This document shows, piece by piece, positions 36,023 through 63,122 of a DNA stretch of 64,000 nt. Position numbers and translations under genes: made by a program. Under the pieces are notes generated by a model. That model saw nothing but the letters and a program-made list of their open reading frames with translations. It was not told where the DNA came from and made no database searches. Numbering within the stretch: position 1 is the stretch's first letter; each line of letters begins with the position of its first letter. Origin of the DNA: a virus (Duplodnaviria > Caudoviricetes); IMG/VR virus record IMGVR_UViG_3300010429_001356, positions 2,456 through 66,455 of that record; one strand, given 5' to 3'.

Positions 36023-37576
36023 GTGGAAGCCGCAACGGTCGACCTAGCTCAGTTCAAGACAGCGCCCTTCGAGCACCAGCTGCGAGAGTGGCTGGCCAGT
36101 CGAGGGGCGCATTCTCGCGCCATCTTCTGGGAGCAGGGGACTGGCAAGACCTGGCTCGCGATCAACACGGCCGCCTCGCTGTTCCGCGAGGGCAAGATCG
36201 ACGCGGTCGTGATCGTCGCCCCGAACGGCGTTCACCGCAACTGGGTGACGGAGGAGATCCCACGCCACCTGGCCGAAGACGTCTCTGGGCGGTCCCGGCT
36301 CTTCTGCTACAGGACTGACAAGGCGACGGCGAAGTGGCACCAGGACGAGTGCCTCCAGCTCCTGAAGCACCAGGGGCTGGCTTGGCTCGCCATGTCCTTC
36401 GACGCGGTCGTGACCGACCCGATCATGGAGCGGGACAAAGACACGGGCTCCCGCCGCACGGTCTGGCGGGGCGGCAAGAAGTTCCTCTGGGACTTCCTGT
36501 CCACCCGGAAGGTGCTGTACATCGTCGACGAGGCTCGCCGCATCAAGAACCCGAAGGCCGACCGCACCAAGGTCGTCGTCAAGAGCGGTCGCTACGCCCC
36601 GTACCGCCGGATCCTGAACGGCACCCCGGTGCCGAACGGCCCATTCGACCTGTTCCCTCAGCTGCAGTTCCTGGACGAGAAGTTCTGGGATCAGCATGGC
36701 GTCGGCCTGTGGACGACCTACAAGGCGTTCTTCGGCCGGTTCCAGAGGGCGCAGGTGCGCAACAAGCAGGGCAAGCTCGTCGAGTTCGATCAGCTCATCG
36801 GCTACCAGAACCTCGACATCCTGAACCGCATCGTCGACACCATCGGCACCCGGGTGCTGAAGGAAGACGTCCTCGACCTGCCGCCGAAGGTCTACACCAG
36901 ACGCGAGTTCGACCTCACCGACACTCAGGCGAAGGCGTACAGGGCCATTCGCGACGACTTCATGGTCATGCTGGAGGGCGGCCAGCTCGTGACGGCCCCG
37001 CTCGCACTGACGCGGCTCCTCCGCCTCCAGCAGGTCGCCAGCGGGTTCGTCGCGACCGACGACGGCGAGCCAGCGGTCGACATCGGCAAGGTCAACCCGC
37101 GGCTGGACCTCGTGCTCGAGATCGCGGAAGACCTTCCCCACAAGGCCATCATCTGGACGAAGTTCCGCCGCACAGTCGACAAGCTCATGGACGCCCTGGG
37201 CGAGAGGGCGGTGCGGTACGACGGCGCTGTCGACGAGGACGCCCGCGGCCGCGCGGTCACGGCCTTCAACAAGGGCGACGCCCAGTTCTTCGTGGCCAAC
37301 CAGCAGACGGCCTGCGAGGGGCTCACCCTCCTGGGCGATCAGGCCCAGGACTCGCTCGCCTGCAAGACCTCCATCATCGCGGAGCACACCTTCGACCTGG
37401 CGGTGCGGCTCCAGCTCGAGGACCGCAACCACCGCATCGGTCAGAAGTTCTCGACCGAGTACATCGACGTCTGCGGCGCGGGCACGATCGACCGGCACAT
37501 CGTGAGGGCGCTCCTCGAGAAGTTCGATGTGAGCTGCCAGGTCACGGGGGATCGCGTCAAGCAGTGGCTTGCCTAG
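36023..37576 (+). CDS. SNF2-like SF2 helicase
   Basis: EQGTGKT, IVDEA, LNGTP, QLEDRNHRIGQ; TATAGT 6 nt before GTG. Confidence 0.9.
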   Translation: MEAATVDLAQFKTAPFEHQLREWLASRGAHSRAIFWEQGTGKTWLAINTAASLFREGKIDAVVIVAPNGVHRNWVTEEIPRHLAEDVSGRSRLFCYRTDKATAKWHQDECLQLLKHQGLAWLAMSFDAVVTDPIMERDKDTGSRRTVWRGGKKFLWDFLSTRKVLYIVDEARRIKNPKADRTKVVVKSGRYAPYRRILNGTPVPNGPFDLFPQLQFLDEKFWDQHGVGLWTTYKAFFGRFQRAQVRNKQGKLVEFDQLIGYQNLDILNRIVDTIGTRVLKEDVLDLPPKVYTRREFDLTDTQAKAYRAIRDDFMVMLEGGQLVTAPLALTRLLRLQQVASGFVATDDGEPAVDIGKVNPRLDLVLEIAEDLPHKAIIWTKFRRTVDKLMDALGERAVRYDGAVDEDARGRAVTAFNKGDAQFFVANQQTACEGLTLLGDQAQDSLACKTSIIAEHTFDLAVRLQLEDRNHRIGQKFSTEYIDVCGAGTIDRHIVRALLEKFDVSCQVTGDRVKQWLA

Positions 37577-37597
37577 CGGAAGGCCGCGGGGTATCAT
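37569..37597 (+). promoter_or_regulatory. Promoter TTGCCT-N17-TATCAT
   Basis: Upstream of ORF 37620. Confidence 0.55.
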
Positions 37598-37619
37598 GAG
37601 GGGCACAGAGGAGCAACCA

Positions 37620-38165
37620 ATGTCAGCGAATCCATACGCCGCGTTCAAGGACACCGCCCGCCCGGCCGAAGAGGCCATGGCGGCGCTCCGAGCGCTGATC
37701 GATCAGGCCAAGGAGAAGGAAGCCGCCATCGAGGATCTCTCTGCCAGACTGAAGGCCGAGCAGGAGGCGCTCCGCGACCTGACCTGGACGAAGATCCCCA
37801 CGCTCATGGACGAGATGGGCGTCGAGGAGATCAAGACGCCCGACGGCATCAAGGTCAAGGTGAAGGAAGAGATCGAGGCTGGCATCAGCGCCGAGCGTCG
37901 CCCCCTGGCTCACAAGTGGCTCGAGGAGAACGGCCACGCGGGGCTGATCAAGCGGGAGATCTCCGTCGCGTTCAACCGGGACCAGTCGGAGCAGGCAGCC
38001 GAGCTCGTGAACGAGCTCCAGGGCCGCTTCGCCGGGGTCTCGCAGGACAGCAAGGTGCACCCCGCGACCCTGAAGGCGTGGGTGAAGGAGATGCTGGCGA
38101 AGGGGAACGAGCTCCCGCTCGACCTCTTCGGGGTGTTCCGTCGGCGCATCGCGAAGATGGACTAA
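37620..38165 (+). CDS. Conserved phage replication-module protein
   Basis: IPTLMDEMGVEEI..WLEENGHAGLIK..VHPATLKAWVKE; usual neighbour of the next gene. Confidence 0.7.
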   Translation: MSANPYAAFKDTARPAEEAMAALRALIDQAKEKEAAIEDLSARLKAEQEALRDLTWTKIPTLMDEMGVEEIKTPDGIKVKVKEEIEAGISAERRPLAHKWLEENGHAGLIKREISVAFNRDQSEQAAELVNELQGRFAGVSQDSKVHPATLKAWVKEMLAKGNELPLDLFGVFRRRIAKMD

Positions 38166-38168
38166 TCT

Positions 38169-38257
38169 GCAGGGGTAGCTCAGTTGGTAGAGCGCTGCTG
38201 TCCAGGGGCCACCGCCCCTGGTTGCGGAGGTCGGGGGTTCGATTCCCTCCCCCAGCG
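38169..38257 (+). tRNA. tRNA-shaped RNA with a 16-nt insertion in the anticodon loop (possible Trp-CCA origin)
   Basis: U8A9, D arm GCUC/GAGC, variable AGGUC, T arm GGGGG-UUCGAUU-CCCUC, acceptor GCAGGGG/CCCCAGC, G73; no encoded CCA. Confidence 0.75.
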
Positions 38258-38348
38258 TTGTGAAGGTTGCCGGGGCACCTGTTGGAAGCCCCGGGGTCTA
38301 ACGTCCGGGTGACTTGAAACAACCGGCGAACGTGAAAGGATCGAGATC

Positions 38349-39179
38349 ATGGCCAAGCAGAACAGCGAGATCGAAACCAAGAAGGCGGGCGGCGCGCTCG
38401 CGACCTACGACTACGGCCAGATGGCCGGGTCGGGGTTCGAGAACACCACCACCGACGACCTGTCCATCCCGTTCCTGGCTGTCCTGCAGCCCATGAGCCC
38501 GGAGGTCCAGCCCGGTGAGGACCGCGTCCAGGGTGCCGAGGCGGGCATGCTCTTCAACACCGTCACCCGCGAGCTCTTCGATCCGAAGGAGGGCGTCTGC
38601 TTCCAGCCGGTGTGCACCCAGCACTGCTTCATGGAGTGGCGTCCCCGCAACCAGGGCGGCGGCCTCGTCGCTCGCCACGCCATCGACAGCGAGGTCGTCG
38701 CCAAGGCCCAGGCCGCGGCGAAGGCCGCGAACGCCGAGTTCGGCAAGCTCAAGACGGCCGCGGGCAATGACCTCATCGAGACCCGCTACGTCCTGGGCTA
38801 CATCCTCCGCGACCCCGAGCAGAAGGAGCCCGGCGAGCCGATCATGATCGCCTTCACCTCGACCAAGATGAAGGTCTACAAGAACATCACCACGCGGCTG
38901 TACACGTTCCAGGGTCGCCCGCCGCTCTTCGCCCACCGCCTCCGCATCACCACGGTGCTGGAGGAGAACCCGAAGGGCAAGTTCTACAACTTCAAGATCG
39001 AGCCGTACTTCGGCACGATCCAGCAGTCGCTCATCAACCCCGCGGGCGATGCGGCCAAGCTCCTCACCGACGCCTCGGCCCTGAAGCAGTCCTTCGAGAA
39101 GGGCGAGACGAAGGTCAACTACGAGAAGCAGGGCGGCGCGTCCGGCGGCTCCGGCTCCGGCGAAGAAGTCCCCTTCTGA
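38349..39179 (+). CDS. ssDNA-binding/annealing-like protein
   Basis: DDLSIPFLAVLQPMSPE..EWRPRNQGGG; C-terminal SGEEVPF tail. Confidence 0.65.
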   Translation: MAKQNSEIETKKAGGALATYDYGQMAGSGFENTTTDDLSIPFLAVLQPMSPEVQPGEDRVQGAEAGMLFNTVTRELFDPKEGVCFQPVCTQHCFMEWRPRNQGGGLVARHAIDSEVVAKAQAAAKAANAEFGKLKTAAGNDLIETRYVLGYILRDPEQKEPGEPIMIAFTSTKMKVYKNITTRLYTFQGRPPLFAHRLRITTVLEENPKGKFYNFKIEPYFGTIQQSLINPAGDAAKLLTDASALKQSFEKGETKVNYEKQGGASGGSGSGEEVPF

Positions 39180-56910: not shown

Positions 56911-57230
56911 CGACGAGCTCGCTCACTCCCGGAGAGCGGCTGTTCATCCAGAGACGCCGGGAAGGCTGGACGGTTGGCCAGGCGGCCAAGCGCGCGAAGA
57001 CTACGGTGTACCAGTACCGAGCCTGGGAGCAGGACCGCGAGAGCGGCGCTCCCTCGCCGGGCCTGGGCCAGCTGACCCCGCAGGAGAAGTGCGTCATCGC
57101 ACGTCGCCGCTCGGGGAAGACCACGGCCCAGGTGGCGAAGGACGTGGGCTGCTGCCGCCTCTGGCTCCGCCAGATGGAGGACGGCAGGGCTCCTGTTGAG
57201 CGCCTGCAGGAGCACTGGCGCGTTCGATGA
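56886..57230 (+). CDS. Tandem XRE-HTH transcription regulator
   Basis: LTPGERLFIQRRREGWT..WE and LTPQEKCVIARRRSGKT..MEDG. Confidence 0.75.
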   Translation: MSAKYTTLTTSSLTPGERLFIQRRREGWTVGQAAKRAKTTVYQYRAWEQDRESGAPSPGLGQLTPQEKCVIARRRSGKTTAQVAKDVGCCRLWLRQMEDGRAPVERLQEHWRVR

Positions 57231-61386: not shown

Positions 61387-61414
61387 TTGCCTTCTGTTCG
61401 CTGTGAGCGATGAT
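61387..61414 (+). promoter_or_regulatory. Promoter TTGCCT-N16-GATGAT
   Basis: Spacer resembles that of the 63136 promoter. Confidence 0.5.
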
Positions 61415-61431
61415 TGAGCCAGGAGCAACCC

Positions 61432-62139
61432 ATGACTACGATGAAGTTCGATCTCGAAGCCGTCCGCGTCCGCCTCAGCGAGGCATTCCGGGTGCTCCGC
61501 GCCAAGGGATACTTCGCCAAGAAGAACTGGAAGTGCTGCCAGAGCTGCGGCTGCGCCGCGATGCCCCAGGGGACGGAGAAGTACGTCTTCTACCACGCCC
61601 AGGACAGGCAGGACCTGATGGACGGAGAGAAGTTCTACCTCGCCTGGGGCGGCGACTCGCGAGAGATTGTCGCGGCGCTCCGCGAAGCGGGCCTGCTCGT
61701 GGAGCACGACGGCTCGAACAGCACCCGCATCGCGGTGCTCGGTGCCGACAGCGAGAAGTGGGCCGCGACCGGGTACAAGGTCGGTCAGCGGGTCATGGTG
61801 CGCGGCGACCGCGCCGACTCCTGGCGGCACGCCGAGATCGTCGCCGAGAAGCCGTACCGCGGCACCGCTGGGTTCGACGTGACGAACCTGGACGTCGACC
61901 CTCACAACCCCGCCGACTCGAAGGGCGGCTGGACGTACCCCGCGTTCATGCGGCCGATCCCGCAGGACCGCCCGATCATCGCCATACGGCCGACGTCCAT
62001 GAAGGGCCAGGTGCTCTTCCAGATGTGGCGGCCGGAGGACACCTTCAAGCCGACGGTGTCACTCCAGATGCCCCAGGACTACGCCGAGTGGCTCGCGAAG
62101 CTCGCGGCCGCCGACGAGAACGGGCCTGGCGTCCGGTGA
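61432..62139 (+). CDS. DUF6891-like multidomain hypothetical protein
   Basis: LSEAFRVLRAKGYFAKKNWKCCQSCG. Confidence 0.55.
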   Translation: MTTMKFDLEAVRVRLSEAFRVLRAKGYFAKKNWKCCQSCGCAAMPQGTEKYVFYHAQDRQDLMDGEKFYLAWGGDSREIVAALREAGLLVEHDGSNSTRIAVLGADSEKWAATGYKVGQRVMVRGDRADSWRHAEIVAEKPYRGTAGFDVTNLDVDPHNPADSKGGWTYPAFMRPIPQDRPIIAIRPTSMKGQVLFQMWRPEDTFKPTVSLQMPQDYAEWLAKLAAADENGPGVR

Positions 62140-62198
62140 ACGGCCTGACCGACAACCACGTTGACATGTTCGCCCGACTGTGGAATGAGTTACGACCC

Positions 62199-63122
62199 AT
62201 GGCAGAGAAGTCAGTCCTGCTCGCACCCTCCAAGCTCCCGAAGCCGGAGGATCTCCAGTACCCCATGCTCGCCAGCCTGAAGTTCGACGGCCTGCGCATG
62301 CTCGTACGACCCGGCGACATGCTCACCCGGTCGATGAAGCCGCAGCCGAACCTCAACCTGCGGAGCCACCTGGGCGAGCTCATGCAGTTCCTCGTGTCGA
62401 ACAAGCTGGTGCTCGACGGCGAGCTCTACTCGGACGAGATCGACTTCTCCGAGCTGAGCGGGCTCCTCCGCTCGACCGACCAGCCGATCCCCGACCACGT
62501 GCACTTCCACGTCTTCGACGTGCTCACGGTCGACGAGTGGGAGCGCGGCGAGATGCCCGGGTTCTTCGACCGAGTGTCGTTCCTCAACCAGCTCAAGCTC
62601 GATCGGTTCCCCCGCGTCCGCACCGTTGAGCAGCGGCGGGTGGCCTGCGCCGACGACGTGCGGGCGATGTACGCCGAGGCTCTCGAGGCGGGCTTCGAGG
62701 GCGTGATGCTCCGCTCCATGCGGGGGAAGTACAAGCAGGGGCGAGCCACCGAGAAGGAGAACATCATCTTCAAGCAGAAGCCGTTCGACAACCACGACGC
62801 GGTCGTCATCGGCTTCGAGCAGCAGCGGGCGATCCGCGACGACATCGAGCGCGGCGTCAACGAGCTCGGTCGCACCAAGCGCACCCACCGAGCGGAGCAC
62901 TTCGGTCTCGCCGACAACATCGGCAACCTCCGGCTCCGCGACGAGAAGGGCCGGGAGTTCAACTGCGGCTGGGGCCGCGGCTGGACCCACGCGAAGAGAA
63001 AGGAGCTCTGGGACAAGAGGGACTCACTCCTCGGGCGCTGGGTGGAGTTCCGCTGCATGGGCGTGGGCGAGAAGGATCTGCCCCGGATGCCCCAGCTGGT
63101 GAGGTTCCGCGACGACAAGTAG
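62199..63122 (+). CDS. ATP-dependent DNA ligase (start may be GTG 62136)
   Basis: KFDGLR, LDGEL, FDVL, EGVML, KQKP, LPRMP. Confidence 0.92.
   Translation: MAEKSVLLAPSKLPKPEDLQYPMLASLKFDGLRMLVRPGDMLTRSMKPQPNLNLRSHLGELMQFLVSNKLVLDGELYSDEIDFSELSGLLRSTDQPIPDHVHFHVFDVLTVDEWERGEMPGFFDRVSFLNQLKLDRFPRVRTVEQRRVACADDVRAMYAEALEAGFEGVMLRSMRGKYKQGRATEKENIIFKQKPFDNHDAVVIGFEQQRAIRDDIERGVNELGRTKRTHRAEHFGLADNIGNLRLRDEKGREFNCGWGRGWTHAKRKELWDKRDSLLGRWVEFRCMGVGEKDLPRMPQLVRFRDDK

Follow-up and report, generated by a model that had tools for sequence, protein, structure and literature searches.

An apparently selected and non-decoding tRNA-shaped RNA with a sealed anticodon arm ahead of a probable single-stranded DNA-binding protein gene in an uncultured phage

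The tRNA genes of phages are usually taken as a codon supply, and the locus described here raises the question of what a full-size tRNA shape does in a phage genome when its anticodon loop is replaced by a closed helix; as argued below, this shape appears to be selected for a job other than decoding. The locus belongs to an IMG/VR record of 66,455 bp (completeness 100% according to CheckV), of which we analysed a stretch of 64,000 bases with a GC content of 66%, hereafter called the window. The replication genes of this phage are distant kin of those of Pseudomonas YuA/M6/Pam3-like and Bordetella siphophages, and its host is probably a proteobacterium; most of the DNA runs with near-identical sequence were sampled from wastewater, activated sludge or anaerobic digesters, and some from hot springs and microbial mats. 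The whole record gives one tmRNA match and one tRNA-type match, the latter being the element considered here, an RNA gene of 89 nt on the + strand (38169-38257) that does not encode its CCA end.

On the window, ARAGORN calls positions 38168-38258 (+) a tRNA-Trp(cca) with intron, an output that illustrates how tRNA finders mislabel elements of this kind. The Rfam tRNA model RF00005 matches 38169-38257 with 48 bits (gathering score 29; model positions 1-71) and the minimum free energy fold of the element is a cloverleaf. The acceptor stem GCAGGGG/CCCCAGC pairs 38169-38175 with 38250-38256 and contains an A3.A70 mismatch (38171/38254), U8 and A9 are present, the D arm GCUC-AGUUGGUA-GAGC (38178-38193) has its G18 and G19, the variable loop is AGGUC, the T arm GGGGG-UUCGAUU-CCCUC occupies 38233-38249, and the discriminator G73 at 38257 is followed by a trailer, UUGUGA (38258-38263), of which UUGU is kept in 8/8 carriers of the element. 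C30 and G40 are separated by 25 nt, where RF00005 has 9 (positions 31-39), and the Rfam alignment skips them. They belong to an extended anticodon arm (38195-38227) made of a basal 4-bp stem, CUGC/GCGG (38195-98 / 38224-27), an internal loop, UGU/UU, and a perfect, sealed 8-bp hairpin, CCAGGGGC-CACC-GCCCCUGG (38202-38221), which takes the place of the anticodon loop. Folded alone, this arm reaches -21.2 kcal/mol (z = -3.4) and none of 200 shuffled sequences is as stable. Measured against RF00005, the element therefore has the cloverleaf with a 7-bp acceptor stem, a D arm with G18 G19 and a T arm with UUCRA, but not the 5-bp anticodon stem with a 7-nt loop carrying U33, an anticodon and a purine at 37; as a stable helix takes the place of the open anticodon loop, the RNA should be unable to decode. 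A preliminary description of this region, made from its letters, proves correct in all that it stated about the sequence of 38169-38257 when compared with the sequence itself, ARAGORN, Rfam and the fold, and the 3-nt distance from the preceding stop codon and the following TTGT, similar to that of the tmRNA, are both confirmed.

The genes of this neighbourhood are all on the + strand. A gene for a SNF2 helicase (36023-37576) is followed by a gene similar to gp33 of phage Pam3 (DUF7307; 37569-38165; Pfam PF23984 5e-32, phrog_2378 1e-50), the stop codon TAA of which is at 38163-38165, with the tRNA-like RNA beginning 3 nt beyond. On the 3' side of the element lies a Pam3 gp34-like gene (38349-39179; PF23977 8e-55), then a Dda/RecD-like helicase gene and the gene for the RNR large subunit. 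An AlphaFold (AF2) model of the gp34-like protein (pLDDT 85), searched against the PDB with Foldseek, has the RB69 gp32 core as best match (prob 0.99, E 0.012), no match being found at E <= 0.001, and VIA alignments to the RB69 and T4 gp32 cores give Z 6.1-6.2 over ~155 residues. On account of this top Foldseek match and of a VIA Z of ~6, the gp34-like protein is probably a gp32-type single-stranded DNA-binding protein (SSB), an assignment to which the models lend moderate support. The gene order is conserved in cultured relatives, and the two flanking genes are annotated in phage Lydia as 'DNA ends-protecting protein' and 'ssDNA-binding protein, T4 gp32-like'. As a separate observation, the best VIA-align match of the gp34-like model (38349-39179, mb4ae2d84104c) is the phiC31 recombination directionality factor in an excisive synapse (9teh_I), the Z of which, 7.5, is slightly higher than the 6.1-6.2 of the gp32 cores.

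Homologous junctions were collected from two IMG/VR contigs (L001 and L002) and from ENA/Logan/JGI contigs reached via protein relatives. Eight loci carry the element, namely the window, L001, L095, L108 (on a contig that is 5'-incomplete), L098, L096, L002 and L099; the seven homologues occupy the same spot as the element of the window, between the gp33-like and the gp32-like SSB genes, and the SSB identity to that of the window ranges among the carriers from 99% to ~60%. In the SSB tree, seven carriers form one clade (support 100/100) and L099 is placed outside it, in a polytomy, ~0.9 changes per site apart from the seven-member clade. The element is absent from L100, L109, L110, L112, L114 and L115 (SSB identity ~50-57%), no tRNA-like RNA is found at the junction of the cultured relatives (Yuavirus Lydia, Bordetella FP1, Rhizobium RHph_I65 and phage Simon; <=45% identity), and scanning metagenomes for gp34-like relatives turned up a single distant locus, from which the element is missing. 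The family of sealed-arm elements is small and its phages are uncultured.

Within this family, the cloverleaf can be folded in 8/8 homologues. In an alignment of the eight that was model-fitted to the structure, which favours the pairing result, 96% of the pair cells are standard pairs and 9/28 pairs are changed on both sides; none of 500 shuffles (0/500) reaches any of the pairing or covariation measures of the family, and slid controls are 48-58% paired. These changes on both sides concern pairs 3:70 and 5:68 of the acceptor, 3/4 pairs of the basal anticodon stem and, in the T arm, pairs 50:64 and 51:63, which covary. The D-loop G18 G19, the T-loop UUCGA, U8 and A14 are invariant, and the D stem is identical in all eight except for one G-U pair (L002) and an A inserted in the 3' strand (L099). 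Outside the arm, the body of the diverged homologues (the near-identical L001 being left out) is 82-95% identical to that of the window, as opposed to 55-72% for the fourfold-degenerate sites of the neighbouring gene. The tRNA body thus appears to be under purifying selection. The preliminary description had set random decay, with no compensatory change in the hairpin, as the outcome that would speak against its reading; compensatory changes were found among the homologues and decay is rejected. The acceptor stem is less regular: five of the seven complete members have exactly one mismatch each, A3.A70 twice, C4.A69 twice (L095 and L098) and G1.A72 once (L096), with fully paired D and T stems, and the discriminator is either G or U. 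Such a mismatch may act as an anti-determinant for charging or for EF-Tu, or may simply be tolerated.

One might ask whether the element is a tolerated relic, that is, a former phage tRNA gene that lost its anticodon and is harmless, its fold being kept since a misfolded insert would harm the transcript. Its absence from sister lineages that have the same leader, the frequency of the acceptor mismatches and the high variability of the arms are what this explanation expects. However, the element has been retained both in L099 and in the seven-member clade in spite of the distance between them, the identity of its body is well above that of the synonymous sites, and compensatory changes occur in every helix, including a matched deletion of one base pair in the hairpin, and we regard a relic as improbable.

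The arm itself follows another pattern. Extended and closed, it measures 22-43 nt among the homologues, against 17 in a tRNA, and differs in sequence, length and loop. The L001 hairpin, CCGGGGGC/GCUCCUGG, has two G-U pairs, which form in the + strand RNA only; that of L095, CCAGGAGC/GCUCCUGG, presents a swap from G-C to A-U of which the G-U intermediate is seen in L001; and that of L108, CCAGGGC/GCCCUGG, has lost one base pair, on both strands. Elsewhere the hairpin is GGAGC-CACC-GCUCU (L098) or CCAGAC-CGCAA-GUCUGG (L096), the arm of L099 is an 11-pair helix with a GCA cap, and in that of L002 a bulged stem of 7 bp carries the 7-nt loop CUGAGAA. The 'anticodon', CCA in the window, is CCG in L001, whose neighbouring protein is 99% identical, and the calls of ARAGORN across the family are Trp, '???', '???', Gly, Leu(tag) and Leu(gag), with none for L099 and for the 5'-incomplete L108. 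Anticodon and identity elements are in consequence not conserved among the orthologues.

These data bear directly on the explanation implied by the ARAGORN label, in which the RNA is a tRNA-Trp precursor with a short intron, a 16-nt insert at 37/38 that an unknown splicing route of the bacterium or the phage would remove to give a decoding tRNA. Read linearly, the sequence does give U33-CCA-G37, in agreement with the call of a tRNA-Trp(cca) with intron. Against this, CCA is replaced in L001 and the other homologues receive a different call or none, positions 31 and 39 would form a U.U mismatch, and removal of the hairpin leaves 5-9 nt with no consistent anticodon loop and no spliced product common to the family. 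The insert, which forms a perfect helix, has no group I core (over 200 nt would be expected, for an insert of 16 nt) and no bulge-helix-bulge, and no intron family appears in the Rfam scan. A search of the phage record for genes for SmpB, a CCA-adding enzyme, RtcB, PTH2 and a T4-type RNA ligase found none; the phage is thus without RtcB or RNA ligase, and its sole ligase is an ATP-dependent DNA ligase. A sub-threshold 'RNA_ligase' match at 61410-63122 was traced to this enzyme (570 aa; PF01068, PF14743), which is not an RNA repair enzyme. The pre-tRNA needing an unknown splicing route, which the preliminary description had offered as one option, is hence rejected and we consider it extremely improbable: as the anticodon varies, no common loop results and RtcB or RNA ligase are missing, neither a spliced pre-tRNA nor simple decay accounts for the family.

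Since the body is kept with compensatory changes while the arms differ and the 'anticodon' is not conserved, the element is best described, judging from the compared sequences, as a selected, non-decoding tRNA mimic and not as a spliced pre-tRNA or a decaying pseudogene. Free variation of the arm is as expected if the scaffold alone matters. The earlier idea of a deliberate anticodon-less tRNA mimic holds as a structural statement, the body being selected and the arm always a closed helix; for the decoy targets that had been named with it (anticodon nucleases, synthetases, EF-Tu and RelA) we find no support.

The 90 nt between the tRNA-like RNA and the SSB start codon are also conserved and contain an H-type pseudoknot (38264-38295, +), in which S1, AGGU (38264-67) / ACCU (38277-80), is separated by a 1-nt loop from S2, GCCGGGGC (38269-76) / GCCCCGG (38288-94). 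The rest of the leader (38296-38348, +) comprises a near-invariant GUCUAACG, a hairpin CCGGGUG..CAACCGG (38305-38326) and an SD-like GAAAGGA (38334-38340), then the ATG. Among the homologues the two stems show strong covariation: S1 becomes UGGGU/ACCCA, CUGGU/ACCAG or AAACGGU/ACCGUUU, and the variants of S2 include GCCUCGCC/GGCGAGGC and GUUGUCGC/GCGACGAC; both stems hold, with differing sequences, in 11 parsed homologues, 3/11 of which are without the tRNA-like element, and L114 and L115, read by eye, fit the pseudoknot and are also without it. In all, L100, L109, L110, L114 and L115 retain the pseudoknot without the tRNA-like RNA. In every carrier the 3' end of the element lies 4-8 nt 5' of S1. 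Kissing between the CACC loop and a GGUG of the leader was considered and dropped, the loops CGCAA, GCA and CUGAGAA not covarying with the leader. Searches with the leader motif GTCTAACGNCCGGGTGAC returned just the known relatives and one chance coding match from viral contigs, and chance matches alone from genome contigs. In one sister lineage (L110 and L111, 2122-2400 of each), an extra ORF of 92 aa with no known family is found in place of the tRNA-like RNA, directly 5' of the same leader pseudoknot.

A pseudoknot 5' of an SSB start codon is the arrangement of a gp32-type operator. In T4, gp32 represses the translation of its own mRNA via a 5' pseudoknot, RNase E cuts all gene 32 transcripts at -71, directly upstream of this pseudoknot, the RNA upstream of the cut is broken down, and the mRNA that the cut leaves has exceptional stability (PMC3014915; PMC535899). 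The leader studied here looks like an independent analogue of this autoregulatory operator: in both cases an SSB gene has a 5' pseudoknot, and the 3' end of the tRNA-like element lies at the equivalent of the T4 processing point. The two differ in that they share no sequence homology and that the cutters proposed here are tRNA enzymes, as opposed to RNase E in T4.

We tentatively interpret the element as a tRNA-like processing mark ahead of the SSB gene, cut by RNase P and RNase Z/BN, a reading to which we give a little less than an even chance. Release of the SSB-like mRNA by such processing was also among the options of the preliminary description, and of these it is the mechanism that we prefer. 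The element would be embedded in a polycistronic transcript of the replication genes, transcribed as one RNA. Host RNase P would cut at G1 (38169), ending the gp33-like mRNA just past its stop codon, and RNase Z/BN, or RNase E with exonucleases, would cut after G73 (38257). The SSB mRNA would be released with a new 5' end ~6 nt ahead of its pseudoknot operator, in a manner similar to the -71 cut of T4, and the by-product would be a stable RNA of ~92 nt with a CCA tail. The two cuts would separate the gp33-like message from the SSB message, with a possible benefit for SSB expression.

Several observations are consistent with a processing mark. In 7/7 carriers with a 5' end, G1 lies 1-6 nt past the upstream stop codon, which leaves no room for an intergenic promoter; because the element abuts this stop codon and no terminator-like site was found after it, it should be transcribed inside the operon mRNA. 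As in t-elements, a non-decoding tRNA-like fold is found between cistrons on the coding strand. The element keeps the acceptor/T-arm helix, the elbow of D-loop and T-loop, and the discriminator followed by UUGU, and these are the parts known to be recognised by RNase P, RNase Z/BN and the CCA-adding enzyme; RNase P and the 3' tRNA-processing enzymes accept any tRNA body that folds correctly, whatever its anticodon arm. RNase P prefers a U at -1, a preference that fits the U found there in 5/7 carriers, and the CCA-less tRNAs of T4 depend on RNase BN/Z. The phage tmRNA (34275-34586, - strand; Rfam 76 bits; predicted tag GNTVSLRKAA), which has G3.U70, a discriminator A and no encoded CCA, needs 3' processing and a CCA tail for its function, and its end, followed by TTGT, resembles the CCA-less end of the element. 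Metatranscriptome contigs of a ~95%-similar relative span 37600-38224 and 38204-38558, thus bridging the junctions of gene with element and of element with gene, and hint weakly at one transcript, DNA carry-over being possible; many RNA-library matches at 38175-38250 are unrelated tRNAs of the communities.

Other observations are less easily reconciled with a processing mark. As relatives exist that have the pseudoknot and not the element, the latter is not needed for SSB expression, and as there is just one such element in the 66-kb genome it is not part of a general punctuation system. A complete D arm, the tertiary nucleotides and a lengthened, closed arm exceed what a cleavage signal needs, and the acceptor mismatch of 5/7 complete members might lower the efficiency of cleavage.

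The systems nearest to the element can be compared with it on these same points. The t-elements of plant mitochondria were reportedly described by Hanic-Joyce in 1990. They are cis-acting, tRNA-like signals for RNase P/Z, located where mRNAs end; the limits of the fold match the mRNA termini that RNase P and RNase Z produce, and once excised the elements receive non-templated C/A residues (PMC1920247, Forner et al. 2007). Like these t-elements and the tRNA punctuation of mitochondria, the element is a non-decoding tRNA-like fold between coding regions; unlike the t-elements, which are degenerate cloverleaves retaining the top half only, it is a complete cloverleaf with its tertiary nucleotides and a lengthened, sealed anticodon arm, and it is set in a phage. 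With canonical and phage tRNAs it shares the acceptor, D, variable and T regions that give the 48-bit match, and a CCA-less 3' end, common in phage tRNAs; it differs from a canonical tRNA by its lack of a 7-nt anticodon loop, of U33 and of a conserved anticodon, and by its acceptor mismatch. An artificial design has the same architecture: tRNA scaffolds in which the anticodon arm has been swapped for arbitrary hairpins are correctly processed and accumulate in E. coli (PMC3753655). As in this engineered scaffold of Ponchon and Dardel, the acceptor, T and D arms are kept and a hairpin stands for the anticodon stem-loop, but the scaffold carries a chosen payload, whereas the element has a plain helix for an insert, variable and devoid of a conserved payload. 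The mascRNA of the MALAT1 3' module is likewise tRNA-like and non-decoding; RNase P and RNase Z cut it out and in doing so set the end of the neighbouring long RNA, and it is then CCA-tailed; it is eukaryotic and its anticodon arm is shortened, in contrast to the lengthened arm of the element. The Rfam scan at E<=1 lists RF00005 and not mascRNA (RF01684), four lower-scoring overlapping matches of the same clan being left unlisted. The tRNA-like domain of tmRNA is also a bacterial and phage mimic of tRNA that does not decode, but it has G3.U70 and an mRNA module, whereas the element has A3.A70 and no tag ORF, in a phage without SmpB. YrlA-type Y RNAs are bacterial tRNA mimics without decoding as well (PMC4201824); they are permuted and end in a Ro-binding stem, whereas the ends of the element form a normal acceptor stem, and it has no YrlA match in Rfam. 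No specific Rfam family, but the generic tRNA model alone, is listed for the element, and the literature searched contains neither sealed-anticodon tRNA mimics of phages nor phage tRNA-like punctuation. The element belongs with the known non-decoding tRNA-like processing or mimic elements, as a new form. Were it a processing mark, the host tRNA-maturation enzymes would be the site-specific mRNA cutter of the phage, maturing an SSB message with a pseudoknot operator; bacterial viruses would then have an equivalent of the tRNA punctuation of organelles, and T4 gene 32 would be joined by a second, independent example of a pseudoknot with an upstream cut.

The surplus of structure over what cleavage needs leads to a different possibility, namely that the excised, sealed RNA is itself the product and acts in trans, occupying or decoying a host factor that reads the shape of a tRNA or its acceptor end. 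This factor could be a defence nuclease or toxin directed at tRNA, or else a processing or modifying enzyme, and the lack of an anticodon would keep the RNA outside translation. We consider such a role rather unlikely, and nonetheless a serious rival because the element is dispensable in sister lineages, over-complete and mismatched in its acceptors, and because similar genes occur in tRNA clusters. The whole L-shape is conserved (D arm, G18 G19, G15-C48, U8-A14) and not the top half alone, and the arm, which no member has lost, remains a closed helix throughout and is often lengthened; sealed-arm tRNA-like genes are also numerous elsewhere in phage contigs, and some of these stand within tRNA clusters, a setting without an mRNA to be cut. 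On the other hand, neither the arm nor the loop has any portion that all members share, which argues against a specific payload; the single copy within an mRNA ties its dosage to that transcript; none of the tRNA-related partners looked for (SmpB, CCA-adding enzyme, RtcB, PTH2, RNA ligase) is encoded by the phage; and close relatives live without the element. No synthetase identity is kept either: the discriminator is G in some members and U in others, the acceptor pairs are variable and mismatched, and this variability, as read in the homologues, argues against charging. A more specific version, that the ~92-nt excised RNA is one of a broad, undescribed class of phage 'sealed-anticodon' mimics that act in trans, titrating or misleading a host factor that recognises tRNA (a defence nuclease, a toxin or a processing enzyme) while their closed arm keeps them off the ribosome, seems to us still less probable.

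The other sealed-arm genes were reached by a pattern scan of IMG/VR for the D-arm sequence of the element with an enlarged spacing between the D and T arms, which gave 87 DNA stretches, many with closed arms and loops of 3-5 nt; in L031 and L064, for instance, the arm is GGCCC-GAAA-GGGCC. A covariance model of the family, R1, is not family-specific, as ordinary and other odd phage tRNAs score as high as 67 bits with it and the family members 57-110; its weak matches at 57080-57166 of the window and within the tmRNA are not family members. Seen against this background, the proposal of the preliminary description that the element is a new RNA class is too strong, the family being small and similar sealed mimics being common in phage metagenomes. 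As these mimics are frequent there and were not found in the literature searched, a covarying family with a defined neighbour offers a testable entry point to them.

Closed or lengthened arms with the same D arm are seen in unrelated contigs at L031:959-1039, L064:6937-7019, L071:7843-7922, L009:1205-1305, L007:5031-5123, L043:516-608 and others, with loops that are GAAA, of UUCG type or otherwise small, the genes standing in tRNA clusters or alone. A separate group with inserts of 52-53 nt (L016, L033 and others) looks pseudoknotted.
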